From Eubacteriales bacterium (lineage in GTDB: Bacteria > Bacillota > Clostridia > Oscillospirales > CAG-272): a DNA stretch of 64,000 nucleotides. Position numbers and translations under genes: made by a program. Shown one piece after another: positions 13,098 to 62,374 of the stretch; position 1 is the first letter of the stretch; each line of letters opens with the position of its first letter. The stretch lies in NCBI GenBank assembly GCA_045629745.1, contig JAZQRU010000042.1, forward strand, positions 100,039 through 164,038. The letters are read 5' to 3'. The notes under the pieces are model-generated. The model was not told where the DNA came from and searched no databases. It saw nothing but the letters and a program-made list of their open reading frames with translations.

Positions 13098-13229
13098 ACT
13101 TTAAAATTCACAATTCTTAAAACCAAATGATTGAGCTTGCCCGAATTTCGCTAAAAGCGTTTTTCGGGTGAGGCTCACGGACTTTGAAGAAGCAAAATAA
13201 TTTAGTGTTACATATTAAGGAGAAAGATT

Positions 13230-15290
13230 ATGAAGGCAAAAAGAAGGTTCTTGCTTTGCATTCTTTGTCTTGCGGCTCTTTCCACGGCAGTTTTCGGACT
13301 AAGCTCGTGCGGCGAAGAGACACTTGAAGAATGTCCACACTCTTGGAACAGTTGGGAAACCGTAATTCCCCCCACCTGTCAGGCAGAAGGACTTGAAAGA
13401 AGAGCTTGCAAGCTCAATTCTACACATATAGAAGAAAGAACGGTTGTAAAACTCGACCATTCTTTCGAGAATTACGTTTCAAATAATGACGCAACCTGCG
13501 CAAAATACGGCACTAAGACTGCTTATTGCACAACTCTCGGTTGCACTGTTTCAAATACTGTTGACGATATCGGATCACAGCTCCCCCACGATTTCACAGA
13601 AAAGGTAATCAGTGACGATTATCTTTTGAGAGCGCCTTCCTGCACTAAGCCCGCGTCTTACTACTACTCCTGCTATTGCGGCGCTTGCGGCACGGAAACC
13701 TTCCAAAACGGTGATCCCGTACACAGCTTTGGCACTGAGCTTGTTTTCGACGAAGAAAGCCATTGGTACGAATGCTCACTTTGCGGTGAAAAGAATGAGC
13801 TTGCAGCTCACGAGTGGGATGAGGGCGAAGTCGTCAGCGAGGCAAATTGTACCGAAGACGGTAAAAAGGTTTACACATGCGAATGCGGAGCCACGAAAGA
13901 AGAGACAACTCCCGCGCATCACACTCTCACTTACGTTAAAGAAGTTTCCGCCACCTGTACTCTTGAAGGAAGCATTGCTTACTGGCAGTGCTCAGTAGAA
14001 GAATGTGGTAAGAAATTCTCTGATGAAAAGGCAGAGAATGAAATAACGGAGATTAAGACTCTTATCGTTGAACATAGCTACGCATTGTGGACTCACGATA
14101 AAGACGGTCATGCTAAGAAATGCATCTGGTGCGAAGAAACTATTGACGAAAAGGCTCACGAGTTTAAAGACGGATACGACGCAGGATATCATTTCACAAA
14201 ATGCGAGTGCGGATACGTATCCTCATCTGAAGCTCACAATATTTCCGTTCATAAAAACGCAGACGCACACTGGAACGAGTGCACAAAATGCGATTACGTT
14301 TCCGCAAAAGCGGAGCACACCAACGAAACTCGCTCATCTTCAACTCAGCACTGGGAAGCTTGCACTTACTGTGACTGCGCGCTTGATAGATTCAATCACG
14401 AGTACGACGACGGTGTTGTAACGAAAGAGGCGAGCTGCACTGAATACGGAATTAAGACCTACACCTGCGCTTGCGGCGCAACCGTTACCGAAAAGATAGC
14501 TCCACATCACACGTATTCCGAGCTTATTCCTACGGTTGATTCGACCTGTACAGAAGAGGGCACAAAGGCTCATTACGTTTGTCTTGTATGCGAAAAGCGC
14601 TTCGTAAATACTCTCGGTATGACAGATAACTTAACCATAGCAATAAAAGAGCATAGCTGGGCTAAAAAACACGTTTCCGCCGAAGGTCACTTTAATGAAT
14701 GCGTTGACTGCGGCGCGAAAGAGCTTAATGCACAGACTAATGAAGTGATAATTGTGCCTCACACCCTTGTTCCCTCTATGGGTGACGGAGAAGCGCATTA
14801 CGATGTGTGCGAATGCTCTTACAAGGAAAACGTTGAAACTCACTTCTGGGGCGGCGGTATTGTAACCACCCCCGCAGATTGCTTCAATAACGGTGTAAAA
14901 ACCTATACCTGCTATTGCTGCGGCAATACAAAGACCGAGATTGTTCCGTGCCATACCTTGACGTTTGTTGAGGCTAAGGCCGCTACCACATGCGAAGACG
15001 GCAATATTGCTTATCTCCGTTGCGACGTTTGCCAGAATGCTTATTATGCCCCTGGCGCAACTGCAGGCAATCACGACCATCTCACCGCGCCTGACGTTAT
15101 AATCCCTGCTCCCCACGATTTTGTGGGCGGCGAGGTTAAATATGGCGATAACGGTCACTGGATCGTGTGCGTTCACTGCGATGAAACCTCCGCCGTAGTG
15201 CCTCACTCAACCGAAAGAACAGGTCCGGATGCAGACGGTTATTTCTGGATTGAGTGCAAGGATTGCGAACATAAAAAGAGAGAAAATTAA
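13230..15290 (+). CDS. Cys/His-rich lipoprotein (686 aa), short paralogue of the giant protein
   Basis: AAGGAG RBS and lipobox (VFGLSSC|G). The first ~300 aa are collinear with the giant protein (ECPHSWNSWETV.PPTC... versus ECVHEWGEWETVTEPTC...). It contains a few HW.EC.CGY-type units. Confidence 0.88.
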   Translation: MKAKRRFLLCILCLAALSTAVFGLSSCGEETLEECPHSWNSWETVIPPTCQAEGLERRACKLNSTHIEERTVVKLDHSFENYVSNNDATCAKYGTKTAYCTTLGCTVSNTVDDIGSQLPHDFTEKVISDDYLLRAPSCTKPASYYYSCYCGACGTETFQNGDPVHSFGTELVFDEESHWYECSLCGEKNELAAHEWDEGEVVSEANCTEDGKKVYTCECGATKEETTPAHHTLTYVKEVSATCTLEGSIAYWQCSVEECGKKFSDEKAENEITEIKTLIVEHSYALWTHDKDGHAKKCIWCEETIDEKAHEFKDGYDAGYHFTKCECGYVSSSEAHNISVHKNADAHWNECTKCDYVSAKAEHTNETRSSSTQHWEACTYCDCALDRFNHEYDDGVVTKEASCTEYGIKTYTCACGATVTEKIAPHHTYSELIPTVDSTCTEEGTKAHYVCLVCEKRFVNTLGMTDNLTIAIKEHSWAKKHVSAEGHFNECVDCGAKELNAQTNEVIIVPHTLVPSMGDGEAHYDVCECSYKENVETHFWGGGIVTTPADCFNNGVKTYTCYCCGNTKTEIVPCHTLTFVEAKAATTCEDGNIAYLRCDVCQNAYYAPGATAGNHDHLTAPDVIIPAPHDFVGGEVKYGDNGHWIVCVHCDETSAVVPHSTERTGPDADGYFWIECKDCEHKKREN

Positions 15291-26085: not shown

Positions 26086-27354
26086 TTAAATTTCTTCAAA
26101 AAGCTTACGAACGTTCTGACTAACCGAATTAGCATCATGATAAGAGCGAGCGCAAGCTAAAGCATTTATAATCTTTTCTTTTCTAACGTTTTCATCATCA
26201 AAAGCTAAAAGCAGCTTATCATAAAGCTCATCTTTTGACGTTGCCGTAATGGCAGAATCGTTTTTCAGAAGATACCTAATTGACGCGACGTTCTCAGGGC
26301 CGTAAGCAAAAAGCGGAATACCGCTTGAAAGACTGTCTGCAATTTTAGTTGAAACAGAATGCTTGACAAGGTCGATGCTTTTTTCGTCAAAGGCTTCCGT
26401 ATGCAAAAGAATATCGGACGACAGAAAGGCTTTATTAAATTCATCGCCCGTAACAAAACCGCAGAGCTTTATGGATTTTATACCGTCAAAATGAGATAAA
26501 ATATCCGTGTCCTTTTCCGAAGTATAAATGCAAAGCTTGTAATCTGTATTGCGCTCGAAATTTATTTTATCAAGAGCGTTTCCTATTTCTGCAAGAGAAT
26601 AAAATCTGTTGCAGCGTACATTACCGAAATAACTTATACTTTTCGGTTCTTTTATATCCCGTGGCTTTTCGGCAATGGGAAAACCTGCGCCCGTCATTAC
26701 CGTTGTTGCAGGGACTGAAAATTCTTTAGAGTACGCTTCATTCAGCTCGTCGCATATTGTTATAACGTGCTGTGATTTTATCATAGTTTTTTTGATTTTT
26801 TTTCTAAGACTATCTCTGTTTAATTTAGCGAGAACCCCTTTGGGTTTCTTTACAAAATAATAATCATCACAAATATAAGTGACTATCGGGAGATTATGTT
26901 TCTTTGAGATTTTTAAAGCTACGTCATATATGAATTTAGCGTTTCCCGGAGCTAAAAATATGCACGTCGGCTTTTCCTTTTCAATCCAAGCTTCAAGCTC
27001 TTTATTATACCAACGAGAAAGCTTCCACATAAGGTCACGCAAAATTTTTCGTGATGCTTTTCTATTTGCTCGATTTCTGTAAAAAGCTTCATCATTAGGG
27101 TTTTCGTAAGAAGAATGCTGATTTAAGTCAGGCTCAACAACTTTTCCGCAAACGTGAAATTTATAATAAGACCTTAAAACGTCTTTATCTGTAATTCTAT
27201 AGTAAGAGCTTGCTTTATCAGTGTCCGGAATTTGAGGATATATGTATAACTGGCACAATTCGAGAGGTGATACCTCAGAAAGCAGCGAAAGCAAGGTTTT
27301 TCCCATACTCTGTTGCGTATTCAATGAGTTATGACTTATTAAAAGAATTTTCAT
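26086..27354 (-). CDS. putative GT-B fold glycosyltransferase
   Basis: 422 aa. MKILLISHNSL N-terminus and C-terminal HTEAFDEKSIDLVKHSVSTKIADSLSSGIPL block. Locus context. Family not resolved by eye. Confidence 0.5.
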   Translation of the reverse strand: MKILLISHNSLNTQQSMGKTLLSLLSEVSPLELCQLYIYPQIPDTDKASSYYRITDKDVLRSYYKFHVCGKVVEPDLNQHSSYENPNDEAFYRNRANRKASRKILRDLMWKLSRWYNKELEAWIEKEKPTCIFLAPGNAKFIYDVALKISKKHNLPIVTYICDDYYFVKKPKGVLAKLNRDSLRKKIKKTMIKSQHVITICDELNEAYSKEFSVPATTVMTGAGFPIAEKPRDIKEPKSISYFGNVRCNRFYSLAEIGNALDKINFERNTDYKLCIYTSEKDTDILSHFDGIKSIKLCGFVTGDEFNKAFLSSDILLHTEAFDEKSIDLVKHSVSTKIADSLSSGIPLFAYGPENVASIRYLLKNDSAITATSKDELYDKLLLAFDDENVRKEKIINALACARSYHDANSVSQNVRKLFEEI

Positions 27355-27383
27355 CTCTCAATCCCTTTCTCGTATTACCTTTT

Positions 27384-28265
27384 TTAAAGCAATTTTTTCT
27401 CGTCTGAAAAATCATTAACTTGTTTGCAATACTCACGGAAATCTTTATCCGTATCCCAAAACTTTGCGTGTTGCTCCCACTTAATTCTTTCAGGCGACGG
27501 CGGCTTCATATAATCACCAAAACGGAAGCTTAAAAAATCGTGCAGATTTTCGGGAATTTTAAGCTGCACCTTTTCAAACGGAGCATATACCGTCGGTTCA
27601 AACCAAGCTCTTTCATAAATCGCATTTTTGAAAACTGCTTTGCCCATAAAATTACACAAGCATTTTGTGTTTTTGTTTCGATATTTATATACCTGTTTCA
27701 ATCCGTGCTTAACAAGAAAGCGATCGGGAAACAGCGCCATTATCTTCAAAGCAAATCCCAAGAACCCACGACGGCGCTTATATCCGCGCGCAGCCAAACC
27801 TTTCATTACAACATACTTTGCCCAAAGGCATTGATGCCATCTTGCAATTTTATTATTGGGGCAATTATGCAAAATGAAAATGTCAATATAAATACCGTGA
27901 TGTATATCTTCGTTTTCCAAGAGTTCTTCTATATAAGTCGTACCGTTCATACGAATTTTTGAAATGGTGACCATACCGTTCGTTTCGCCCCACTCTTGAA
28001 GATAATACTTTTCGTGATTTCCACGTTCTTTAAAAGCGGCGCGAAATTTTTCATAATTATCAGGCGTCATAAAAATATCAAGATCATCATCCCAAGGTAT
28101 AAATCCGCCGTGACGTTTTGCTCCCAAAGCAGAACCGCCCATTAAGCAATAGTCCACTTCGTTTTCAGCACAAAAACGATCAACGTCTACAGCGATTTCC
28201 AAAATTTTATCCTGTAACTTCAAAAACCCGTAGCTGTCATCCAGTTCATCTCGCATATAATCCAT
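27384..28265 (-). CDS. licD: LicD-family phosphotransferase (alditol-/choline-phosphate transferase type)
   Basis: CLMGGSALGAKRHGGFIPWDDDLDIFM (LicD DxD signature). The ATG at 28265 overlaps the upstream stop codon (TGATG). Confidence 0.8.
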   Translation of the reverse strand: MDYMRDELDDSYGFLKLQDKILEIAVDVDRFCAENEVDYCLMGGSALGAKRHGGFIPWDDDLDIFMTPDNYEKFRAAFKERGNHEKYYLQEWGETNGMVTISKIRMNGTTYIEELLENEDIHHGIYIDIFILHNCPNNKIARWHQCLWAKYVVMKGLAARGYKRRRGFLGFALKIMALFPDRFLVKHGLKQVYKYRNKNTKCLCNFMGKAVFKNAIYERAWFEPTVYAPFEKVQLKIPENLHDFLSFRFGDYMKPPSPERIKWEQHAKFWDTDKDFREYCKQVNDFSDEKKLL

Positions 28266-29452
28266 CAATTTATCCCCAACATCTTTTTCATTATCTTTCT
28301 TATGAAATTAGGCATTGCATAATACACTTTTTTGGTGTAAGATTTCGTTCCGTCCAAATATCTTTTTACTACAATGTCGAATGGCTCTTCCTGTAAGGCT
28401 TTTATAAATTCATCGCGATTTGCAGGCTTTTGAGTACCGCCTCGCATCAATTCTCTGTCGTCAAAAAGTACAGAAAAATCTAAAGTGTGATATATTGTGT
28501 TTCCGCAAACACCCTTCCACAAATCCATACCCTTTTCGGTATTTATACATACTGTAGAAACACCGTCGAATCTGTTGATACCCGAAATATATTTGTCAAT
28601 TCCGTGAAAATCGCCAATAGTAATATCTGACACTCTGTTGCTATGCGAAAATTGACAATCATAGCAGCTGTCTCTCATTGTTATGTACTTCTGGAAGCCA
28701 TTATAGAACAGCGAATCAACGTAAAGCTTTGTTTTTGTCTTCTTTTTGCCTTTTTTCAGATAGGTGAGTTTGTAGTAATGCGGTGTTGTGCCATTTTTCT
28801 TTTTCGCTCTAAACTGATAAGACAAGAACTTTATTTTATCTCTCTTTTCTTCATATTCTCTGCACTTATCGAAAAGCTTTTGAGAAGGAACACCGTGACA
28901 AACAAAGTCAACTGTATAAAGGTTTTCATAATCTTTTTTCAAAAACAACTGCAAGGCGAATACTTGGCAAGGTGTAGAAACAAACAGCACTTTCTTTCCA
29001 TCTTCCAATTGTTTTTTTATGGCAAAAAATTGTCCGTTTAAATCACTTTGAATATACTTGGATTTATATAACGGCAATAAATCGCTTTTTGTTTCCGCCG
29101 ATTTGCATTTCAATTGTAAATCTTCATCAAAGGCTGCGCCGTAAACAATTCCCTCGGAATTGATGATATTCTCCGCAAACAGACCAAACATACCGCCTGA
29201 GGATCCGTTATACCGAACGCTCGGATCTTTCGCATATACAGCAAAAACGCTATGCTCCATACATTCAGCATTAGCGTGATTTATAACAGGACAGGTTTTA
29301 TTGCATAGATTACAATCAACGCACTTGTTGTAATCAAGGTTTGGAAAAACAAACCCGCATTCATCCTCTTCCATACGTATCGCGTTTTGAGGACAAATTA
29401 TCGCACAATTGCCACATCCGCAGCACTGTGATTTTTGCTTGATATCAATCAT
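28265..29452 (-). CDS. FrhB/FdhB-like 2x[4Fe-4S] flavoprotein (coenzyme F420 hydrogenase beta-subunit-like), free-standing
   Basis: CCGCGNCAIICP and CVDCNLCNKTCP ferredoxin motifs. The remainder is collinear with the C-terminal half of 21387-23684 (FGAAFD, LFVSTPCQ, VCHGVPS, RDSCYDCQF). Confidence 0.7.
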   Translation of the reverse strand: MIDIKQKSQCCGCGNCAIICPQNAIRMEEDECGFVFPNLDYNKCVDCNLCNKTCPVINHANAECMEHSVFAVYAKDPSVRYNGSSGGMFGLFAENIINSEGIVYGAAFDEDLQLKCKSAETKSDLLPLYKSKYIQSDLNGQFFAIKKQLEDGKKVLFVSTPCQVFALQLFLKKDYENLYTVDFVCHGVPSQKLFDKCREYEEKRDKIKFLSYQFRAKKKNGTTPHYYKLTYLKKGKKKTKTKLYVDSLFYNGFQKYITMRDSCYDCQFSHSNRVSDITIGDFHGIDKYISGINRFDGVSTVCINTEKGMDLWKGVCGNTIYHTLDFSVLFDDRELMRGGTQKPANRDEFIKALQEEPFDIVVKRYLDGTKSYTKKVYYAMPNFIRKIMKKMLGIN

Positions 29453-29874
29453 TTTTTATCCTCTTGCAATTTTTGAGCAATCTCCGTAGAAGATGTGCCG
29501 TCTGTATGCGGCAAGAACACAACTTTGACGCCTACCTCTGCAAATTTATTTTCATAGTCGTCGTAAAGCTTAGAGCCTTTCCAATCGCTTCCGTGAAACA
29601 AGGCATCAAATTTCAGTTGCTTCCACGCTTCAAACTTGTCCATTGAGGTCTGCGGAACAACCTTATCAACGTATTTTATAGCGTCTACAATAGCTATTCT
29701 CTCGTGATATGGAATGATAGGTTTTTTATTTTTATACGTCTCAACAAGCTCATCAGTCGAAACGCCGACAATCAAAAAATCGCATTGCTCTTTGGCGCGA
29801 CGAATTATGTTTAAATGTCCAATGTGAAAGAGGTCAAACACGCCTGTGGTGTATCCTATTTTATATTTCTTCAT
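29449..29874 (-). CDS. tagD: glycerol-3-phosphate cytidylyltransferase
   Basis: 141 aa. GYTTGVFDLFHIGHLNIIRRAKEQCDFLIVGVSTDE (HxGH cytidylyltransferase signature). Stop overlaps the downstream start (ATGA). Confidence 0.88.
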   Translation of the reverse strand: MKKYKIGYTTGVFDLFHIGHLNIIRRAKEQCDFLIVGVSTDELVETYKNKKPIIPYHERIAIVDAIKYVDKVVPQTSMDKFEAWKQLKFDALFHGSDWKGSKLYDDYENKFAEVGVKVVFLPHTDGTSSTEIAQKLQEDKK

Positions 29875-29878
29875 AACT

Positions 29879-30706
29879 TCAAGCTCTTTTCCTTGCGAAT
29901 TTTTTGAAAACCCAACCGCGAAGCTTATTCGGCATCAAGACTTGAACGATAAAACGTTTAAGCACGTTGGAAACGTAGGTTGGATAGCCTATGATTTTTT
30001 CTTTAAGCATAAATTTCTGCAAGCGTTTTTCACTTTTGAAATATTTTAGTCCGCCGCGGCGCTGATACATTTCATTGCCGACTCTTACGTTTACAAGCAT
30101 CTCGGGGACGTTTGCGAATTTCATATCTGCCAAAGTCATTCGCACCCAAAGATAATAGTCCTCTTCACAGTACCAGTCGATAAAACCGCCCGCGGCATTT
30201 ACGGAAGATTTTTTGAACATTACGGTTACGAGATTCATAGGGCATCTTTTTTTAAGATATTCCTTTATCTCAGCGTCGCTCTCGGGAACTATTCTGCTGC
30301 CGACAATATTTTCAGGCTCTCCGACGAATTCCGTTATGTTTCCGCCGACGATATCAACGGAGTCATCACTCTCAAAAGCCTTTAATTGCACTTCAAATCT
30401 ATCGGGGGCGCTTATATCGTCAGCGTCCATAATCGCAACAAGCTCATTCGTGCATTTTTCAAGGCCGAATCGTCTTGCTTTTCCGTGGCCCTTGTTTTCT
30501 TGGAAACGGTAAACCTTAAAAAAATCAAATTCCGCGTATTTTGAAATCACCGCATCAATTTCGTGCGGTACGGGGCCGTCAACGACTAAGATAACTTCCG
30601 AGGGCTTTACGCTCTGGTTTATAATACTGCCAACGGCAATATCAAAATGCTCGGGATTATTCTTACCGTAAACGCACATTGAAACGGAAAACTGCTTATA
30701 ATCCAT
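29879..30706 (-). CDS. GT2-family glycosyltransferase
   Basis: FSVSMCVYGKNNPEHFDIAVGSIINQS N-terminus and MDADD (DxD) motif. Confidence 0.8.
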   Translation of the reverse strand: MDYKQFSVSMCVYGKNNPEHFDIAVGSIINQSVKPSEVILVVDGPVPHEIDAVISKYAEFDFFKVYRFQENKGHGKARRFGLEKCTNELVAIMDADDISAPDRFEVQLKAFESDDSVDIVGGNITEFVGEPENIVGSRIVPESDAEIKEYLKKRCPMNLVTVMFKKSSVNAAGGFIDWYCEEDYYLWVRMTLADMKFANVPEMLVNVRVGNEMYQRRGGLKYFKSEKRLQKFMLKEKIIGYPTYVSNVLKRFIVQVLMPNKLRGWVFKKFARKRA

Positions 30707-54223: not shown

Positions 54224-54262
54224 AGAAGCGTGGCGCTCCGAAGAACGCCACGCCGTTTTTAT
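54224..54262. terminator. GC-rich hairpin terminator at the end of the four-lipoprotein operon (works on either strand)
   Basis: GCGTGGCG-ctccgaagaa-CGCCACGC with T-rich flanks on both strands. It lies 33 nt past the stop of 54295-56343. Confidence 0.6.
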
Positions 54263-54294: not shown

Positions 54295-56343
54295 TTATGC
54301 TGCGGGTGCAGGATCCGGAGCAGGAGCGGGATCAACGTCGTTAACTATGAAATATCCTTTGGTAACGGTAGTGCTCTCGGGTGTTACAACAGTGGTAACG
54401 GTGTTAAGAATTACGTACTGTTCACCGTCAATTGTGCAAGTCTGGAAGTTATAAGTGTCAACACCTGCGCAGATAAGAGTATTGCTGCTACTGTATATGG
54501 AGTAGGTGTAGCCGATGATGCTCTGCTGCTGAGTATCAGGATCGGTAAAGATGGTGGGAACCTTTACTACGTAGTAATTAGAGCTCATACCGTACCAAAC
54601 GATTTCCTTTGCAGAAGAATCATTAAAGAGAAGCACAGGAGCCTCAAGAGTGGTATTCCAGTAGTAAGTGTTGTAAACTACGGTTTCAACCTCTTCAACA
54701 GTGGTCTTAACTTCCTCAACGAGAATCATATAAGCACCGTTATTATATACGTTCTTGTACTTAGTAAGGTCAAGCTTAAGCTTGAGGTCGTAGGTGTAAA
54801 CGCCCTTGCCGCCAAGAATAATGCAATCGTCAAATACTTCATAGCTCTCGGGGAGATAGTTAAGGAACTTGCCGTTTGCATCGTATACAGCTGTATAGTC
54901 TTCTCCGTTAAGATCTATGCTCTTAAGGTAAAGGCCGTCAGCAACGAGGGTGGACTCAAAGGCAGCGTCGAGATCGCAAACGATTTCAAGAGCATTGCTA
55001 ACAGCAAGAGCTTTGTAGCTGTCGACGTCAACAGTGCCGTTAACTATAGGCATTACAACAAAGAGGTTTTCGAGTTTAGCGGTGATATCTTCCATCTCGC
55101 CATCGTTTGCCATTACTGTCAAAACAACGTAACCAAATTCGGTTTCCGTTACAGTTTTAGCTGCGGGATCAACAATGAAATAATCAAGGTCGTACTTTGC
55201 GTCTTCCCATTCAACGTCATAGTTTATTGCAGTGTAAGGAAGAGCCTTTGCAGTCTGAATAAATACGTTGCCATTCTGAAGAATAAACCAGTTAGCGTTC
55301 TGGCCGTATGTGAAGGAATAGGTGTAGGTGCACTCAAGCCACTTTGAAAGATCAAAGAAGGAGATCTTTTCGTCGTCCTCGATAATACCGAATGCGTCGG
55401 TAACGTAATCAAACTCGGGGCGATCAAGGAAGAATATTTCTTTCTCGGAGTGAATGATGTTACCCTCAGCGTCAATTACGTAAACGATTTCGTCATTGGT
55501 AAACTGGAAGGTTTCGTTGTTGCCTTCGCCTATGTATTCATAGATATCAGACGTTCCGTCGAGAGAAAGAGGCTTGGTGTTCAACTTAGTATAGTTCTCG
55601 GTATAGTAGTAATACTCATCACCGCCGAGCACAACCGCATACAAGCCGTCAAGGTTGTAGTAATTGAATGAGGGTGCCTCATCCCAATACTCGTTAACGT
55701 CAGTCGTCGAAGCGTTGTCCTCTACGAAATCGTAGGGCTCGGTGGTTATAAGCTCAATAGCCTTACCGGTTATATCGTTAATGAGAGTGTACGTATCCTT
55801 GCGGGTAGCATACTTAGACTCGTCAGTATCGGTAGTTGCGGGATCGTCAACAACGGGATCGCTAACCTTTACCGAGGTCTTGATAATGTAGTAGTGATTA
55901 CCAAGCTCTTTAACGATATTAAGCTCAACGTTGGTCTCTGCGGGAGTGTATACGTGAGCGTAAAGGGTAAGAGTTCCGTTTACGTAATCAAGCTTTACGT
56001 AATCGCCGAGAACAGCGTCGGTGGGAACAGGTTTAACAACCATAGGAACGTACTCTTCCTTAGCAATAGGAACGAGAACTTCAACCTGATTCTCTATAGT
56101 GTTGGTGATTATAACGGTATCGCAGTTTTCAGTATCGCAAAGTCCGTCGCGGTTTGCATCCACGTGATTTGTACAGTTGGGTTCCTCGGGTTCGGGAAGC
56201 TGAACAACGTCCTCGCAGCCTTCGGTATCACAAATACCGTCACCGTCTGCGTCAAGGTGAGTCGTACATTCTTCCGAGCAGGAAACGAAGAGCACGCTTA
56301 CGCAAAGCAATGCGATAAGCAACGAAATAAGTTTAATTTTCAT
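54295..56343 (-). CDS. acidic lipoprotein, paralogue 4 of 4 (682 aa), unknown function
   Basis: Lipobox LFVSC|S. Two N-terminal C-T-x-H-x-D-A-x-x-D-G-x-C-D-T-E-x-C motifs. Tyr/Asp/Asn-rich body with hydrophobic-x-D-x-x-G-x-hydrophobic strand repeats. NGNVFIQ motif. PAPAPDPAPAA tail. Confidence 0.85.
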   Translation of the reverse strand: MKIKLISLLIALLCVSVLFVSCSEECTTHLDADGDGICDTEGCEDVVQLPEPEEPNCTNHVDANRDGLCDTENCDTVIITNTIENQVEVLVPIAKEEYVPMVVKPVPTDAVLGDYVKLDYVNGTLTLYAHVYTPAETNVELNIVKELGNHYYIIKTSVKVSDPVVDDPATTDTDESKYATRKDTYTLINDITGKAIELITTEPYDFVEDNASTTDVNEYWDEAPSFNYYNLDGLYAVVLGGDEYYYYTENYTKLNTKPLSLDGTSDIYEYIGEGNNETFQFTNDEIVYVIDAEGNIIHSEKEIFFLDRPEFDYVTDAFGIIEDDEKISFFDLSKWLECTYTYSFTYGQNANWFILQNGNVFIQTAKALPYTAINYDVEWEDAKYDLDYFIVDPAAKTVTETEFGYVVLTVMANDGEMEDITAKLENLFVVMPIVNGTVDVDSYKALAVSNALEIVCDLDAAFESTLVADGLYLKSIDLNGEDYTAVYDANGKFLNYLPESYEVFDDCIILGGKGVYTYDLKLKLDLTKYKNVYNNGAYMILVEEVKTTVEEVETVVYNTYYWNTTLEAPVLLFNDSSAKEIVWYGMSSNYYVVKVPTIFTDPDTQQQSIIGYTYSIYSSSNTLICAGVDTYNFQTCTIDGEQYVILNTVTTVVTPESTTVTKGYFIVNDVDPAPAPDPAPAA

Positions 56344-56361
56344 CGTTTTTCTCCTTCTCTA

Positions 56362-58344
56362 TCATTTAATAGTGGTGTAGCGAATATAGTCGCCTCTGTC
56401 ATTCTTTTCGGAACGTGTTTCCAAAACAATTACGTCACCGTAATCTTCGAGTATATTAGTTACGTCATACTCGTCATAAGAATAAGTGTAGTAAGAGTAG
56501 GAATAATCGTCCGCATAGAAGCTTGCTACGCTTTCGCCCTTTACGTTGACGAAGTTCACGTAGTAGCGATCGTCTTCGCTGTTATAAGTGATTACGCGCT
56601 CAACTCTTCCGCTTAGGTAAGAGTCGGTTTGAACAATGCGGCCGTCATCGTCAGAAACGGTGCAAACGGTCTTCTTAACAACGGTGTCGTTCTCTGCGTT
56701 ATAGTAGCAAACAGCAAGAGAGGTGTACTCGTCTTTTTCATTATAGCTTCGAACAAGCAAAGAAACGATGTCGCCACTTTCGTTGCACATATATTCTTCA
56801 ATCATTACGAAGTCGCCGATAATTACCTTGCCGCTGTAATCGATAAGGTTACGGCAGGATTCGCCGTCTTCATTCTCAGCTTCAACTATGAGCATACCGG
56901 GATAGGAGGAGATTATCTTATAGTCGTATGCATAGAATTCTCCGTCAGTTACGCGGTAATAGAAGTTACTATCATTGTTCATAGTTGCGGGGATAAGCAC
57001 CGTATCCGCATCGCGAATCTCTATAAGACTTTTCTGGTTGGGAATGATCTCGGGGAGTACTTCCTTAACGGTGAGATCCAAGTTAAGAGCAACGTAGGAA
57101 AGCTCGGAGGACACCATCTGTTTTTCAAACGTGAAAGCCTCGATAACTACGCAGTCACCCGCAAGCGCGGCGTTTCTGCTGCCCAAAGCATCGTACCATT
57201 CGGTAATGATATATGCAAATTCAATTTCGGAAACTTTTCCGCTAGCAACGTCAAACACCTTCGTAACAACGTCATACTTCGCGTTGGTTTCATAATCGTA
57301 AACGTCGTATGTCTTAGCGCCTTCGCTGACCTCGATTGCGTCCTGCATAAGAACGTTTCCGTTAGGAAGGAAAATTTCAACTTCGCTGTCGCAGTTATAT
57401 TCGCAAACGTATTTTCCATTAAGATCGAAGATCAAAGCTCTATCTTCATTATGAAGGTCATATACGAAATAGTAGCTGCCGATCTTGTCTATTTCCGAAG
57501 AGCCGTAAGTTGCCTCAATGAAGGGATCCTCAGTGTAAAGCTCTTCTGCCACCTTCTTTATAAAATTGCCGTCGTTATCAAGAACGTAGGCAGTTCCGTT
57601 AAGAATAAAGGCGTTGGTAAATTCTGTGGTTTTCGTATCATAATCCCAGTAGTTCTCAGCCTCGCCGAGAAGAGTTCCGTCTGCAAGATAAAACTCGTAG
57701 TAGGTCTCCTTGAGAGTATAGCCGATTATTTCGGGAGTTTCGGTTGAACCCTCGGGAAGCTCCTCATAAACGGCATCCCAGTTTTCGTATTCTACACGGA
57801 ATATACCGTAGAATATATCGGTATCTACGGATACAATAGTAGAATCGCTGAGAATTTCGCTCTCATCTTCAAGATTCATTAAATATGCGTTTTTATAAGA
57901 GAAGATGGGCTCGTCTTTGCCAAAAATGTTGTAAACTCTGATGGTTTCTTCAACTCTGGTCTTCCAAAGCTCTTCGAACTCGCCGTGGATCCGCTTTGTT
58001 TCGGTCTGAACCAAAACGCCGTAGGTATCAGCGCCGACGAAATTGTGAGTTTTGTCGTCAAGGCTTGCGGTGGAGTCTGAAGATGCTGCATCGAGTGATT
58101 TTACGTCATACTTGAGATACTTCTGCCAAACAGCAAGCTTGCCGGAGGCGGTAAGAGTATCAACTGAGGGAACGTCACTTGTTCCTGAGCTCGCATCATC
58201 GGTAAGGATAATGCCGTTTTCGTGTATGGGGTCGTTTGCAAGCACGTCGTTATCAGGAAGTGCTGCCGATCCGGTACACGAAGAAAGAGCCATCACTGCA
58301 CAAAGCAGAGCAGAAACAAAAACAATAAGTTTTCTGTTTTTCAT
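56362..58344 (-). CDS. acidic lipoprotein, paralogue 3 of 4 (660 aa), unknown function
   Basis: Lipobox ALSSC|T. NGNVLMQ motif. Repeats such as YVLDNDGNFIKK and LIFDLNGKYVCEY. 18-nt gap to the next gene. Confidence 0.85.
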   Translation of the reverse strand: MKNRKLIVFVSALLCAVMALSSCTGSAALPDNDVLANDPIHENGIILTDDASSGTSDVPSVDTLTASGKLAVWQKYLKYDVKSLDAASSDSTASLDDKTHNFVGADTYGVLVQTETKRIHGEFEELWKTRVEETIRVYNIFGKDEPIFSYKNAYLMNLEDESEILSDSTIVSVDTDIFYGIFRVEYENWDAVYEELPEGSTETPEIIGYTLKETYYEFYLADGTLLGEAENYWDYDTKTTEFTNAFILNGTAYVLDNDGNFIKKVAEELYTEDPFIEATYGSSEIDKIGSYYFVYDLHNEDRALIFDLNGKYVCEYNCDSEVEIFLPNGNVLMQDAIEVSEGAKTYDVYDYETNAKYDVVTKVFDVASGKVSEIEFAYIITEWYDALGSRNAALAGDCVVIEAFTFEKQMVSSELSYVALNLDLTVKEVLPEIIPNQKSLIEIRDADTVLIPATMNNDSNFYYRVTDGEFYAYDYKIISSYPGMLIVEAENEDGESCRNLIDYSGKVIIGDFVMIEEYMCNESGDIVSLLVRSYNEKDEYTSLAVCYYNAENDTVVKKTVCTVSDDDGRIVQTDSYLSGRVERVITYNSEDDRYYVNFVNVKGESVASFYADDYSYSYYTYSYDEYDVTNILEDYGDVIVLETRSEKNDRGDYIRYTTIK

Positions 58345-58379
58345 TTTTTTCTCCTTTTCAGTATCGGGTCATCGACCTG

Positions 58380-60320
58380 TTATTTAATAAAGTAGGTGCG
58401 TCCTACACCCTTGATTACAGTTGTCATCTCGTATGCATCAAGATAATCGTTGAATTCCATCTTAATTTTGTTCATACTGATAAACAAAAGCTCGAAGTTA
58501 CGGTTGTAAAGCTCGTAGGTTTCGTCTTCGCCGTTGTAGAGAATGATGTAATCGGAGCGGTTCTCTTCTACGTCTTCAATATCTTCAAGCTCGGACTTTT
58601 TAATAACGTAGACAGGCTTCGTTTCTTCCTCGTCCTCACCGTCTTCTTCGTTTGATTTGTTCTGAGTAGATTCCTCGAGAGTCAAGCGATAGAACGTAAG
58701 CTTTTCTTCATTATAGATAGTATCGGGGTTATCCTCGATTTCTTCTTTCATAATGATACTGTCGCCGATATAAGCTGCTACAGACTCGCCCTCGTCGAAC
58801 TCGTAGAGGCACTCGAAATTGTAATCGAAGATTCCGTAGCTATTGACGATAAAATCGTTTCTGAGCACGTTATCGGAATCAAGATATCTTACGAAGTTGC
58901 CTTCGGGATCATAAAGAGCTATGTAATTGTTAAGTGAAACATTTACGTAGCTATATCCGTTATCAAGCTTTTCAAATCCGAAATCACCCGAAATCGGAAC
59001 GATTTCCTCGGGAACGTACTGAACTTTAAGATCGTTGTCAACAAATACCATCAAATCATCCTCGTCGGAAGGCATAACGATGGCTCTATCCACAATCTTT
59101 AATCCGTAAGCAAGGTTAACAAGCTTATCGCCTATTACAAAGTCGGAATCGCTCGCAAGGTCTTTAAGAGAGCTTGCACCGACAATGCTCAAAAAGATGT
59201 AGTCAACCTCAACGGGAGTTTCAAGAGCCTTGAATACACCGTTCTCATTCGTGAACTGCACGGTATAGCTGTCAAGCATATACGTTTCGCCATTGAGGTG
59301 GAAATCATAAGCTTCGCCTGCGTATGCTTCGCGAACCTCCTGAATGAATATCTTGCCGTCTTCAAGAACGTTAACGCTAGCTTCTTCACCGTATACCTTA
59401 TGGTAAACAAGCTTTCCGCTTGCCTTTTCATAAACCTGGATAGCATAATTTTCATAATGCGCAGCTCTGAGATAGTATCCGTAGATTTCATTCTCGTAGT
59501 CATAACCGAAGTGTGCAAGAGAGGTTGCTTCAAACGCACCATCATACTTGCCATCCTTATCCAAGAGGTAGCAATAGCCGTCGTGAGCATAGATAACGTA
59601 AGCAACGTAAGACTCTGCAGCAAAAAGCGCCGAATTGTTTGACGGAATAGCGTAGAAGCCTACAAAATCCTCGTCAAGACCTGCCTGCTTGTTTTCAAAT
59701 ACGCTATTGCCGTGAAGGTCATATACGCTGTAATTCACGGATTCAACGTAGAATCTGTCTTCGTTTTCGATGTAATAGCTTTCATCTCTCATCTCGTCGG
59801 TTATCTGAGCGTACTTAACGTCCATAACCACGATAACAGCCGCATCGTTTGTTTCGTCAGCGCCAAGAGCGTCAGGATTCAAAAACGAAACGTAAATTTC
59901 ACGGTCAGGATTTGCCTGATCTAAGGTATGCTTCCATTTTTTATAGCTTTCGCCCGTCTCTATGTTAACAACCTCGTAGCTGTAAGTCATCTGATTATTT
60001 GAATCAACAGAGCTTTCATACATAAGATAGAAGTTTTCATAAACGTCAACAACTCCCTCGGGAGCATCCTCAACGGTAGTGTAAACCTTATCTCTATCTA
60101 TAAATTCAATGAAATCAGAGAACGTAAGCGGCTCGGTTCCTTCAACTCCAACGTTGGACGATCCGGTCGTGTCAGAAAGGGATGGAATCGTTCCTGCCGT
60201 ACCCGACAAGGAGTCAACGCCGTTCGTTTCGGGAATAACCGCTGAATCAGCACAGGAAACGAACATAACAACGACACAGAGCAACGCGGCGAGAAGCTTA
60301 ATTATATTAGAGCTTTTCAC
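58380..60320 (-). CDS. acidic lipoprotein, paralogue 2 of 4 (646 aa), unknown function
   Basis: GTG start with an AAGGAG RBS. Lipobox MFVSC|A. DGKIFIQ variant of the shared motif. Repeats such as YLLDKDGKYDGAF and ALYDPEGNFVRYL. Confidence 0.85.
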   Translation of the reverse strand: MKSSNIIKLLAALLCVVVMFVSCADSAVIPETNGVDSLSGTAGTIPSLSDTTGSSNVGVEGTEPLTFSDFIEFIDRDKVYTTVEDAPEGVVDVYENFYLMYESSVDSNNQMTYSYEVVNIETGESYKKWKHTLDQANPDREIYVSFLNPDALGADETNDAAVIVVMDVKYAQITDEMRDESYYIENEDRFYVESVNYSVYDLHGNSVFENKQAGLDEDFVGFYAIPSNNSALFAAESYVAYVIYAHDGYCYLLDKDGKYDGAFEATSLAHFGYDYENEIYGYYLRAAHYENYAIQVYEKASGKLVYHKVYGEEASVNVLEDGKIFIQEVREAYAGEAYDFHLNGETYMLDSYTVQFTNENGVFKALETPVEVDYIFLSIVGASSLKDLASDSDFVIGDKLVNLAYGLKIVDRAIVMPSDEDDLMVFVDNDLKVQYVPEEIVPISGDFGFEKLDNGYSYVNVSLNNYIALYDPEGNFVRYLDSDNVLRNDFIVNSYGIFDYNFECLYEFDEGESVAAYIGDSIIMKEEIEDNPDTIYNEEKLTFYRLTLEESTQNKSNEEDGEDEEETKPVYVIKKSELEDIEDVEENRSDYIILYNGEDETYELYNRNFELLFISMNKIKMEFNDYLDAYEMTTVIKGVGRTYFIK

Positions 60321-60357
60321 TTTCTGTTTTCTCCTTTTTTAATTATGTGGTGTTTTG

Positions 60358-62205
60358 TCAATCAATAACAAAATTATGCTTTACTGTTTTTTCAACCATA
60401 TAGTCGTAGTAGCTAACGGTAACGTAAAGAGAATTGTTATGCTCTTCTACATCAATGCAGCCTCTTGAGCTCTCAAGAAGAAGAGTTCCCTCAGCATTGT
60501 AGATAGAGTGCACACAGGCGTTGCAATCGAGCTTAGCGCAATCGCTTCTGAATGTGCAATATTCATCTCTGCAATTGCTAAGCTCGCATTCATCGTAATG
60601 CGCCTTGCACTGATCACAGAATTCGCAAAGAACGTAGTAGCTATTACCTATATCGCATACAATTGCATTGAGATTGTCCTGAAGCACCTTCAATTCGCCG
60701 CTTGCGGGATCAAGAAGAGCTAAGTCGGATTCACCATCGTGATTGAAATCGTATTCTACACAAATCTTATTGTTGATAAATACTTTTCCGCTCTCTTCCT
60801 CGAAGAACAAGAGATTGTTCTCGGATGCAACGTATATAAGATTGAAATCAAGGTCATATACAACACCGTCGCAAACGATGTACTTATCGCTGATATACTC
60901 AATCTGAGGAACGCATTTTACAACGTTTCCGTAATAGTCAAACGCATAGTCAATCGAGCCGTACTGTCCGAAAAGACCTGCAACTATGTACTTATCGCCG
61001 ATAGCGTAAGCCTCGTATGCAAGAGAGTCAACGTCAAGGTTGGGCTCTATTATCGGGAATACGAACTCAACGTTAAGGTCGTTGTCGATTACAACGTACT
61101 GTCCGTTATCGTCGTCACCGTCTTTATCGAAGCGATATATAACAGCCTGGTTCTGCTTACCCTCTACAAGCTCAAACGAGAAGTCTGTGCCGTGCTTTTC
61201 TGCGGAATACGCGGATTCAAGATCGGAGATCCAGAAATCAACGCTTGCCGTTTTGTCGGTAAGAGCGCCCGTCTTGTAGTTCATAATGTTAGTTGTGGTC
61301 TTTATTCTGGTACCGTCACCGTAGATGTAGTTGAAGTCAGCCTCTGCGCTCATATCAAGAACAACAAGGTCTTCCTGAATTACAACGTTGCCGTTGTTAA
61401 GGAAGCTGAAGCTGCTCCATTTAGAGTTAGCGGGAGAGTTGTACTCAACCACGCACGCACCGTCTTTGTCGTAAATATAAAGTGATTTATCACCTGCAAA
61501 GTAGAGGTATCCGCCGTACTCATATCCATAAGCGAAGCCCTTGTCGTAATAGAAATCGCTGCTCATTTCAAATACAGTTTGATTTTCGGAGCCGTACCAT
61601 CTGACGATTTCTGTTCCAACAACGACAGTAAGGTTACCGATAACCTTGTACTCCACTACGTCAGTTCCGTCATAAAGCTTAGTGGGAGCCGCAGTATCGC
61701 TGTACTGATAGTAAGAACGTGAGTAAGTCGTTTCACCGTCAGTGTAATCGAGGCTTGCTACCTCAAAAATAAGAATGCCGTCGTCGAAATAAAGATCAAC
61801 TTTCTTCTCAACGTTCTCACTAAGAGAATAGCTTACCTTGGGGAATTCGTACAAAACCGCACCGTTTCTGTAAAGCTTAACCTCGATAACGTCGTTGTTG
61901 AAGTGATCAACGTCCTCGGCAACCGTAGCCATAAGCTCAGTTCCATCGGGGGTTTCAACCCATATAATGTCCCCTTCAATCGCCTCTGCATTTGTGAAAA
62001 GCTTGTTCTCCACGTAGTAATCATTGTCCGTGGAGTCTATCACAAAATAGCTGAGAAGATCGGGAAGCTTGGGTTCTTCCGGAGTTTCATCGGGCGTGGG
62101 ATCGGGATCGGGATTTTCATTTCCCGTTAAGTTGCATCCCGTCAAAAGCATCGACACACACAACGAAACTACCACAAACAAAAATAAAAGTTTGTGTTTT
62201 CTCAT
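60358..62205 (-). CDS. acidic lipoprotein, paralogue 1 of 4 (615 aa), with C-terminal Cys cluster, unknown function
   Basis: AAAGGAG RBS. Lipobox LLTGC|N followed by a Pro/Asp linker. NGNVVIQ motif near residue 270. Ten Cys within ~45 aa near the C-terminus. Confidence 0.85.
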   Translation of the reverse strand: MRKHKLLFLFVVVSLCVSMLLTGCNLTGNENPDPDPTPDETPEEPKLPDLLSYFVIDSTDNDYYVENKLFTNAEAIEGDIIWVETPDGTELMATVAEDVDHFNNDVIEVKLYRNGAVLYEFPKVSYSLSENVEKKVDLYFDDGILIFEVASLDYTDGETTYSRSYYQYSDTAAPTKLYDGTDVVEYKVIGNLTVVVGTEIVRWYGSENQTVFEMSSDFYYDKGFAYGYEYGGYLYFAGDKSLYIYDKDGACVVEYNSPANSKWSSFSFLNNGNVVIQEDLVVLDMSAEADFNYIYGDGTRIKTTTNIMNYKTGALTDKTASVDFWISDLESAYSAEKHGTDFSFELVEGKQNQAVIYRFDKDGDDDNGQYVVIDNDLNVEFVFPIIEPNLDVDSLAYEAYAIGDKYIVAGLFGQYGSIDYAFDYYGNVVKCVPQIEYISDKYIVCDGVVYDLDFNLIYVASENNLLFFEEESGKVFINNKICVEYDFNHDGESDLALLDPASGELKVLQDNLNAIVCDIGNSYYVLCEFCDQCKAHYDECELSNCRDEYCTFRSDCAKLDCNACVHSIYNAEGTLLLESSRGCIDVEEHNNSLYVTVSYYDYMVEKTVKHNFVID

Positions 62206-62345
62206 TGTCTTCTCCTTTGTTTATTTTGGTTTTTGCGAAAAACAATTTCAATCCGCAACGCACATTCTGCGCACGCAGCTGACGGATCTGCGATAGCATA
62301 TGTTCGCGTCATACGCACGCGAGTGCGCACACGGTTTGTAAGATA

Positions 62346-62374
62346 ATTATAGATTTTATTCGGTTCAAAGTCAA
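62346..62374 (-). promoter_or_regulatory. sigma-A-type promoter of the four-lipoprotein operon
   Basis: Minus strand: TTGACT (rc of 62369-62374), 17 nt, TATAAT (rc of 62346-62351). It leaves a ~134-nt 5' UTR. Confidence 0.6.

Follow-up and report, generated by a model that had tools for sequence, protein, structure and literature searches.

Four Adjacent Lipoprotein Genes of an Uncultured Clostridial Lineage Represent Four Ancient Subfamilies of a Large, Unnamed Protein Family

Introduction

The window analyzed here is a stretch of 64,000 nucleotides from an Eubacteriales bacterium (assembly GCA_045629745.1, contig JAZQRU010000042.1, positions 100,039 to 164,038 of the forward strand). Its minus strand carries four consecutive genes, denoted A to D in the order of transcription, that code for large and highly acidic predicted lipoproteins. 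An initial annotation, made from the sequence without database searches, described these as diverged copies of one another and suggested that they form either a hetero-oligomeric surface assembly or a panel of binders with different specificities for nutrients, host glycans, or calcium. The locus thus raises the question of what the four proteins are and why four diverged copies should be encoded side by side.

We find that A, B, C, and D comprise one member each of four ancient subfamilies, which belong to a large family that has no name and consists of acidic, all-beta lipoproteins rich in Tyr. The family is new, and its function is something that we infer. It is found in uncultured Clostridia, namely metagenome-assembled genomes (MAGs) of Eubacteriales from gut and rumen, and its distribution appears narrow.

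Results

Four Paralogous, Acidic Lipoproteins

The four minus-strand open reading frames (ORFs) were recovered exactly at the coordinates, sizes, and 18–37 nt spacing initially given for them:

60358-62205, minus strand: gene A, 615 aa, subfamily 1 lipoprotein with lipobox LTGC (Cys24), a Pro/Asp/Glu-rich tether, and an all-beta body
58380-60320, minus strand: gene B, 646 aa, GTG start, subfamily 2 lipoprotein with lipobox FVSC (Cys23)
56362-58344, minus strand: gene C, 660 aa, subfamily 3 lipoprotein with lipobox LSSC (Cys23)
54295-56343, minus strand: gene D, 682 aa, subfamily 4 lipoprotein with lipobox FVSC (Cys22)

Each lipobox follows a Lys/Arg-rich start and a hydrophobic core. The lipobox Cys is kept in 98% of 133 family members, and a lipobox-like N-terminus was identified in 159 of 178 representatives of the family, such that the signal peptides with lipoboxes predicted for all four proteins were borne out at the sequence level. 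The proteins are also very acidic and poor in basic residues, as first described, with isoelectric points (pI) of 4.05–4.13, Asp plus Glu contents of 17–20%, and Lys plus Arg contents of 5–7.6%, and Tyr makes up 8–9% of their residues. By comparison, 30 other ORFs in the window have a median pI of 7.85, 12.7% Lys plus Arg, and 4.3% Tyr. Acidity and Tyr-richness extend across the whole lipoprotein family.

The claim that the four proteins are true paralogs, rather than merely similar in composition, was supported both by composition-corrected BLASTP and by a family profile. BLASTP comparisons of the mid-regions yielded E-values of 7e-9 (C–D), 1e-6 (B–D), 4e-5 (A–C), and 0.011 (A–B); A and D were the sole pair lacking a direct match, and their relationship is established via the other copies and the family profile. 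This profile scores all four proteins at E-values from 1e-90 to 1e-117 (6e-117 for A and 1e-98 for B).

The mid-protein block that had initially been noted in all four proteins aligns computationally and proved to be the most conserved element of the family. It has the signature L-x-N-G-N-h-h-h-Q, where h denotes a hydrophobic residue, and is located as follows in the alignment:

61375..61401, minus strand: signature block of A (LNNGNVVIQ, residues 269-277)
59340-59366, minus strand: equivalent block of B
57343-57369, minus strand: equivalent block of C
55255-55281, minus strand: equivalent block of D

In an alignment of 133 sequences, the Leu, Gly, and Gln of this signature are conserved in 97%, 98%, and 95% of members, respectively, making it the best-conserved motif of the family. 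An Asp located 13 residues downstream of the signature Gln is conserved in 80% of the same members, which matches the conserved YD segment originally placed 10–15 residues past the block. The strand-like motif h-h-D-x-[DN]-G-x-h, reported as a repeat present many times in each protein, is indeed enriched (11 observed versus 0.68 expected in shuffled sequences), but there are only two to four copies per protein.

A Large Family Without a Name

With HMMER, an exhaustive search that used a profile of A to D and their orthologs recovered 1,086 representative clusters, defined at 50% identity, at E <= 1e-3, and 833 at E <= 1e-10. A word-indexed protein search recovered only eight C orthologs and one distant relative, and word-indexed searches with alignments as queries yielded almost exclusively orthologs of the first sequence. 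Despite its size, the family could not be assigned to any described group. Searches of A to D against Pfam and NCBIfam gave zero matches, as did a search of the four proteins for anti-phage defense functions with PADLOC, and matches to PHROGs were at the level of the signal peptide only (E >= 0.01). When 44 diverse relatives were screened against Pfam at thresholds up to E = 10, no family common to several members was detected. These profile searches, which had been named as the check on the matter, confirm the first impression that the proteins belong to no named family, and no description of the family was found in the literature.

The 20 clusters that were checked all derive from unannotated MAG assemblies at NCBI or from ENA, JGI, and Logan, and the sole source name among them is ‘hypothetical protein’. 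Sample names indicate ruminant and other gut metagenomes. A scan of Genome Taxonomy Database (GTDB) species representatives with the C alignment and with signal-peptide patterns recovered a single representative, labeled ‘MAG: Eubacteriales bacterium’.

Quartets Are Conserved in Number and Order

To place the four genes among their relatives, we examined about 10 loci of the more than 1,000 clusters, chosen for their long contigs. Screening of all ORFs with the family hidden Markov model revealed that every locus with enough contig has exactly four members, side by side and in one orientation, in the order 1-2-3-4. This holds for the window and for loci L001, L004, L005, L009, L011, L012, and L021. 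In L006 and L008 a fourth gene is likewise present, cut by the contig end. A fifth copy was not found in the fetched flanks (up to 10 kb on each side where the contig allows) or in the 64-kb window. Across loci, neighboring genes of the quartets are either separated by 15–48 nt or overlapping by 1 or 4 nt.

Best matches between quartets by bit score are position-specific (1-1, 2-2, 3-3, and 4-4), with a few exceptions in the weakly conserved subfamily 3. The best matches of A in every other quartet are position-1 proteins, B is orthologous to position-2 proteins in seven of eight comparisons, and D displays the strongest cross-lineage orthology of the four (84–190 bits), while C is the fastest-evolving subunit. 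Proteins at the same position are only about 25% identical when compared across at least four lineages, namely the window lineage, that of L005/L009/L021, L011, and L012. Across the family, 160 of 178 representatives assign cleanly to one of four subfamilies. The position-specific matches and the clean subfamily split indicate that the four subfamilies predate the divergence of these lineages and that their number and order have since been kept.

About 18 of the 178 representatives fit no subfamily and are shorter, most of them 505–555 aa in length. The one such short member seen in its context (P0009; L007, positions 180-1736) is a singleton, and the genes beside it code for an AraC regulator, an ABC ATPase, and two proteins without annotation. 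It may be an ancestral or stand-alone form of the family.

The genes that flank the quartets differ between lineages. In the window lineage the flanks comprise genes for a WYL regulator, a HAD protein, YceD, ribosomal protein L32, FTHFS, and a Mur ligase. Elsewhere, genes for a GH3 glycoside hydrolase (GH) and an AraC regulator are directly upstream of the quartet in L005 and L006, a GH78 rhamnosidase gene is directly upstream in L021, and GH88 and AraC genes (L012) or GH4 and AraC genes (L011) are nearby. ABC exporter genes upstream of the quartet in L010 are unmatched in any other lineage. Across ten quartet loci there was no recurring transporter, enzyme, or membrane-protein partner, and the quartet is, in this respect, a self-contained module. 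In L009 (positions 1-7956), from a distant lineage, the quartet lies directly downstream of conjugation or type IV secretion genes (a type IV secretion system pilin, a TraG-like ATPase, and a 2,624-aa protein). From this context, the module may be able to travel on mobile elements.

These flanking genes bear on a rival explanation, in which the four proteins are independent surface binders, each for a different ligand (e.g., dietary or host glycans), and the operon serves co-expression only; such proteins would correspond, in monoderms, to accessory glycan-binding lipoproteins. The GH and AraC genes adjacent to or near quartets in L005, L006, L021, L012, and L011 are consistent with this explanation, as is a Tyr content of 8–9%, which resembles that of many carbohydrate-binding surfaces, and the existence of a singleton member. 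However, gut Clostridia abound in GH and AraC genes, whose adjacency may be due to chance, none are found near the quartet in the window lineage, and none of the loci has a transporter linked to the quartet. Moreover, panels of binders usually vary in copy number and expand within lineages, whereas here there are always four genes, one from each subfamily. We therefore consider independent binders to be rather unlikely. The pattern of gene content favors an assembly over a panel of diversifying binders, because copy number is fixed at four, every gene represents a separate ancient subfamily, and the order of the genes has persisted across deep divergence.

An All-Beta, Probably Propeller-Type Body

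AlphaFold2 models were generated for C, from an alignment of 18 sequences (predicted local distance difference test score (pLDDT) 76.6, predicted template modeling score (pTM) 0.59), and for D, from the alignment of 133 sequences (pLDDT 82.2, pTM 0.72, with residues 281-580 at a pLDDT of 85–97). Both models comprise a signal helix, a low-confidence linker, and about 45–50 beta strands with almost no helix. As read from DSSP strings only, the strands form about 11–12 four-strand units and are longer at both chain ends and short and blade-like in mid-chain.

All of the top 50 Foldseek matches in PDB for both models were propeller-containing structures, with the exception of one Rhs-repeat core, at probabilities of about 1, template modeling (TM) scores of at most 0.25, and root-mean-square deviations of 15–30 Å. 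They include IFT-A and other WD40 tandems, DDB1, EMC1, eIF3b, the propeller domains of DPP4 and prolyl tripeptidyl peptidase, the clathrin terminal domain, and BamB, and many of them are scaffold subunits. Matches in BFVD (viral models) were likewise to generic propellers, and no specific structural homolog was recovered from PDB or BFVD. Self-comparison with HHalign detected a weak internal repeat (probability 26%) at a shift of about 160 residues.

Among PDB sequences, the family profile matched the NHL domain of Thin at an E-value that improved from 0.051 with 18 sequences to 0.0026 with 133 sequences, and that of Brat at 0.14. In the profile match the signature block aligns to the ‘..sNGnIlV’ strand of the NHL repeat. 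The NHL repeat model itself (PF01436) gave no match up to E = 10 in any of the 48 proteins scanned with Pfam. Collectively, these models and matches support an all-beta body that is propeller-type at the level of fold class, with a marginal, blade-level link to NHL that does not amount to membership. The beta-propeller-like strands that had been read from the sequence are therefore upheld as a fold class, by two AlphaFold models, by Foldseek, and by the marginal NHL match, but with TM scores that are all at or below 0.25.

Of the sequence relatives considered, NHL-type blades are the closest, through a link that is marginal. NHL propellers (PF01436; Thin, 6d69; Brat, 1q7f) share with the quartet proteins an all-beta, putatively propeller-type architecture and a similar blade pattern of h-x-V-[FY]-D-x-x-G-x-h followed by ‘..sNGnIlV’. 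In contrast, a six-bladed NHL domain is only half the size of the quartet proteins, which have about 45–50 strands with extra N- and C-terminal beta domains and do not have NHL structures at the top of their Foldseek matches.

A propeller-type fold and a marginal link to NHL-type blades are also compatible with the proteins being extracytoplasmic propeller enzymes (e.g., a Ca2+-dependent lactonase, lyase, phytase-like, or GH/polysaccharide lyase (PL)-type enzyme) that would act sequentially on an extracellular polymer. NHL-type blades occur also in several metal-dependent hydrolases and lyases. The acidic surfaces, a possible Ca2+ motif in subunit 4, and conserved Asn, Gln, and Asp residues could be read in the same way. 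Residues conserved across the family are mostly Tyr, Gly, and Leu, together with Gln363, Asn357, Asp376, Asn426, and Asn450 (D numbering). The 133-member alignment, however, reveals no constellation of a conserved acid/base, nucleophile, His, Ser, Lys, or Glu, and Gln, Asp, and Asn are its only conserved polar residues. Asn426 and Asn450 are kept in subfamilies 1, 2, and 4 and are lost in subfamily 3; the conserved Asn are only 23–24 positions apart, too near for equivalent tunnel positions on separate blades. No Pfam or NCBIfam enzyme family was recovered, the 44 diverse members were negative up to E = 10 (including for GH, PL, and BNR/Asp-box models), and no enzyme was matched by Foldseek above a TM score of 0.25. 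An enzymatic role thus strikes us as quite improbable. The loss of the two conserved Asn in subfamily 3 suggests that the subunits are specialized.

Assignment of the proteins as solute-binding lipoproteins of an ABC transporter was rejected based on the all-beta models, the lack of a Pfam match to solute-binding proteins, and the lack of a consistently adjacent permease or ATPase in ten loci.

A Single Transcription Unit with a Conserved Leader

The four genes are flanked by the following putative control elements:

62346..62374, minus strand: sigma-70-type promoter, TTGACT-17-TATAAT, matching 11 of 12 consensus positions, the best site of the region
62206..62345, minus strand: 5' leader of about 140 nt, with boxes CCGTRTGCGCACT..GCGTGCG, TCCGTCARCYGCGTG, and TGTTTTTCGCAAA, followed by Shine-Dalgarno AAAGGAGAA
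54217..54254, minus strand: intrinsic terminator-like hairpin and T-rich tail (hairpin 54254..54227, with a 12-bp stem that includes 8 GC pairs and a 4-nt loop)

The intergenic gaps A–B, B–C, and C–D are 37, 35, and 18 nt, and each of the four genes is preceded at normal spacing by a AAGGAGAA-type Shine-Dalgarno site, the four sites being near-identical. The window and six orthologous loci have identical promoter hexamers (CTATTGACTTT and TATAAT), although the surrounding intergenic DNA is unalignable. The terminator lies 41 nt past the stop codon of D and is convergent with rpmF (L32). The 11/12 sigma-70 site upstream and the 12-bp hairpin downstream bear out the earlier proposal of one promoter and one terminator for the operon, and the four genes are predicted from this layout to be a single transcription unit. 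Three antisense ORFs on the plus strand (55894-56616, 240 aa; 56629-57747, 372 aa; and 60739-61485, 248 aa) overlap D, C, and A, and a similar antisense ORF is present in L008. They appear to arise from the codon composition of the sense genes and not to be real genes.

The leader boxes are invariant in seven loci of the window lineage, in which the A proteins are only 54–78% identical, and the leader is far more conserved than the proteins encoded downstream of it. Its predicted fold features a long hairpin and a helix that pairs UUGUUUUU with the Shine-Dalgarno region (z = -2.3; weak covariation, with one compensatory pair). Rfam gave zero matches in the leader or anywhere in the window, and a 22-mer of the leader, when scanned against metagenomes, gave chance matches only, inside high-GC coding DNA. 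The boxes could equally be read as a direct repeat, CCGT-N(5-10)-GCGTGCG, that would be a candidate DNA operator. We accordingly describe the leader as a candidate new cis-regulatory element, either RNA or DNA operator. Distant quartets have consensus-like promoters and leaders of 110–210 nt without an obvious shared sequence.

Directly upstream of the quartet in all window-lineage loci are genes for a HAD-IA phosphatase and an HTH-WYL-WCX regulator (62640-63290 and 63303-63893, both minus strand, the latter cut by the window end; L001, 973-2621). This pair was not found beside distant quartets. The HTH-WYL-WCX protein, two genes upstream of A, is a candidate regulator that would act on the leader boxes. 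A HAD hydrolase was considered as a conserved partner of the quartet and was rejected, as the HADs adjacent to the quartets in the window and in L010 are not orthologous.

The promoter and the neighborhood of the window lineage have a further reading, namely that the proteins are envelope components or regulators of wall synthesis that dock on peptidoglycan, the teichoic-acid machinery, or a sensor kinase (cf. LpoA/LpoB, BamB, and LpqB), or that they form an S-layer-like acidic coat. Anchoring by flexible tethers at the membrane-wall interface, acidic surfaces that could bridge to wall polymers via divalent cations, a consensus promoter that appears constitutive, housekeeping neighbors (FTHFS, YceD, L32, and Mur ligase), and the presence of BamB among the Foldseek matches are all compatible with such a role. 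Yet no gene for envelope synthesis or for a kinase accompanies the quartet consistently, the apparent restriction of the family to uncultured Clostridia speaks against a core function, and the fast evolution seen here, with lineages sharing about 25% identity, is more usual for surface-exposed proteins. We regard a role of this kind as improbable.

Features Specific to Individual Subunits

In A, B, and C, the lipid-anchor Cys is followed by disordered tethers of about 25–60 residues that are rich in Pro, Ser, Thr, Asp, and Glu. Additional elements are specific to A and D:

60508..60627, minus strand: Cys-rich insert of A, residues 527-566 (CEFCDQCKAHYDECELSNCRDEYCTFRSDCAKLDCNACVH), shared with close relatives
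56122..56268, minus strand: two mini-motifs of D, C-x2-H-x-D-x-[DN]-x-D-G-x-C-D-x3-C, at residues 26-43 and 57-74, directly after the lipid anchor
54298..54333, minus strand: Pro-Ala tail of D (DPAPAPDPAPAA), present in L001 and L004 and absent from distant position-4 proteins

The last 150 residues of A contain 10–12 Cys in the close relatives L001, L004, and L008, and 1–4 Cys in distant position-1 proteins. From this comparison, the Cys-rich insert is seen to be a lineage-specific addition that, at the sequence level, is confined to the window lineage.

The mini-motif of D was identified in 13 of 20 representatives of subfamily 4, versus one in the other subfamilies, with one to two copies in L005, L009, L011, L012, and L021, and in all lineages examined it is specific to subfamily 4. 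In D it scored E = 0.034 against EF-hand_1, 0.62 against TSP3_bac, and 0.63 against Excalibur (10–19 bits versus cut-offs of 22–25), whereas other subfamily-4 copies match Zn_Ribbon_1 and DZR at E-values of about 1e-3 to 1e-2, which are below threshold. Its best PDB matches are EF-hand proteins at E-values of about 1. The sequences D-A-D-G-D-G-I-C-D and D-A-N-R-D-G-L-C-D of subunit 4 resemble the DxDxDGxxC[DE] pattern of DxDxDG motifs (Excalibur, bacterial TSP3, and the EF-hand loop), but the flanking C-x2-H and C-D-x(1-4)-C knuckles are more zinc-ribbon-like. It is plausible that the mini-motif binds Ca2+ or another metal.

Other Features of the Window

Two plus-strand genes code for Cys/His-rich predicted lipoproteins of 2,537 aa (5484-13097) and 686 aa (13230-15290), with lipoboxes FTAC and LSSC, about 7.6% Cys, 5–7% His, and repeated C/H motifs. 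These giant lipoproteins (5484-15290) were examined as possible carriers of the subunit-4 motif, which they do not share. Together with the quartet they occupy about 28% of the window, in line with the earlier estimate of more than a quarter.

A 533-aa ORF without a Pfam match (48475-50076, minus strand) codes for a coiled-coil-like, Glu/Lys/Ala-rich protein with a Pro/Tyr-rich segment (YGPNPYGAPYPPYPPYYPGYDY), and a gene of similar size is found at the syntenic position in L001 and L004. Considered as a possible fifth member, this neighbor is unrelated to the lipoprotein family. Lastly, the region from about 20000 to 30000 has a GC content of 0.35–0.38, versus 0.42–0.49 around it, a strongly negative GC skew, and a long run of minus-strand genes, and it may be a horizontally acquired cluster.

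Discussion

Why, then, would four diverged copies be encoded together? The reading that we favor, while placing it somewhat short of even chances, is that the four proteins form a non-enzymatic, 1:1:1:1 hetero-oligomeric platform for binding or scaffolding that is tethered outside the cytoplasmic membrane. We favor it because the quartet is a fixed set of ancient subfamilies that are tightly coupled, have no partner genes, and lack a catalytic signature.

Under the platform reading, transcription would start at the near-consensus sigma-70 promoter, and the four near-identical Shine-Dalgarno sites would favor similar output of each subunit; in the window lineage, a leader able to sequester the first Shine-Dalgarno site may gate expression. 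The precursors, judging from their signals, would be exported by Sec and lipidated at the lipobox Cys via Lgt and Lsp, and a tether, acidic and disordered, would keep the mature proteins at the outer surface of the cytoplasmic membrane; in D, the two Cys/His/Asp mini-motifs occupy this stretch. The four different subunits would then assemble 1:1:1:1 at the membrane-wall interface and bind or organize a ligand without catalysis. This ligand would most plausibly be a cation-bridged or carbohydrate polymer, either a cell-wall glycopolymer or an external glycan, and subunit 4 would add one or two DxDxDG-type mini-motifs, bracketed by Cys/His beside the anchor, that resemble Ca2+ or metal sites.

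Several considerations weigh against such a platform. Both structure models are of single chains, and paired co-evolution analysis would need more quartets than are known. The fixed gene order could simply be inherited, and it was observed in only about 10 loci of more than 1,000 clusters, selected for long contigs. The short members outside the subfamilies and the lone P0009 in L007 indicate that one protein of the family can function by itself. Foldseek TM scores are at most 0.25, and blade number and even toroidal closure are tentative. The assignment of a ligand is a guess, and the GH and AraC genes near the quartet in several lineages suggest that nutrient capture fits as well as, or better than, an envelope role.

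Known systems provide partial analogies for the proposed platform. The closest functional analogs would be scaffold propeller lipoproteins such as BamB (YfgL), which is a lipid-anchored, extracytoplasmic propeller without a catalytic site that works by protein-protein contact, and which is among the Foldseek matches (4xga). BamB, however, is a single eight-bladed protein of about 390 aa from diderms that operates in a complex of unrelated subunits, whereas the quartet comprises four paralogs of 615–682 aa in a monoderm lineage, with undetectable sequence similarity to BamB.

With regard to organization, the closest analogs would be Mce operons and csc clusters. The Mce operons of Actinobacteria code for six paralogous Mce proteins, in fixed order, that form one heterohexamer; these proteins have an MCE domain and a helical needle, and the operons are coupled to YrbE permeases and an ATPase. 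Mce operons thus offer a precedent for diverged paralogs, in fixed number and order, that encode distinct subunits of one hetero-oligomer, although their fold is unrelated and no membrane or ATPase partner accompanies the quartet. The cscA-D clusters of Lactobacillus plantarum and its relatives encode only surface proteins, generally one copy of each of four families, and a Csc surface complex was proposed from genomics alone (PMC1534035). Like Csc, the quartet is a conserved cluster of surface proteins only, for which a complex is proposed from genomics alone. The Csc families, however, are mutually unrelated, have WxL- and LPXTG-type anchoring, and are reported to be absent from clostridia (PMC1534035), while the quartet comprises four paralogs, all of them lipoproteins without a Pfam match. 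Membership in Csc was rejected, as no WxL, DUF916/DUF3324-type, or other Pfam domain was detected in A to D or in the 44 relatives, and the likeness is organizational only.

One of each subfamily, in fixed order, in a self-contained module is the pattern expected of a multi-subunit assembly. Taken a step further, to a view that we hold as doubtful, the quartet is an unrecognized four-subunit surface lipoprotein machine of clostridia, with subunits that have been distinct since before many gut and rumen lineages diverged. Such a machine would function in polymer capture or envelope organization, for which no dedicated monoderm complex has been described, and it would have escaped annotation because the family is restricted to unannotated MAGs and metagenomes. 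More generally, in gut Firmicutes a large blind spot is formed by lipoproteins of unknown function, to which this family alone contributes more than 1,000 clusters, and a curated family model would end the annotation of its members as four unrelated hypothetical proteins. A complex that bound glycans or wall polymers would represent a new type of surface apparatus for monoderm gut bacteria.

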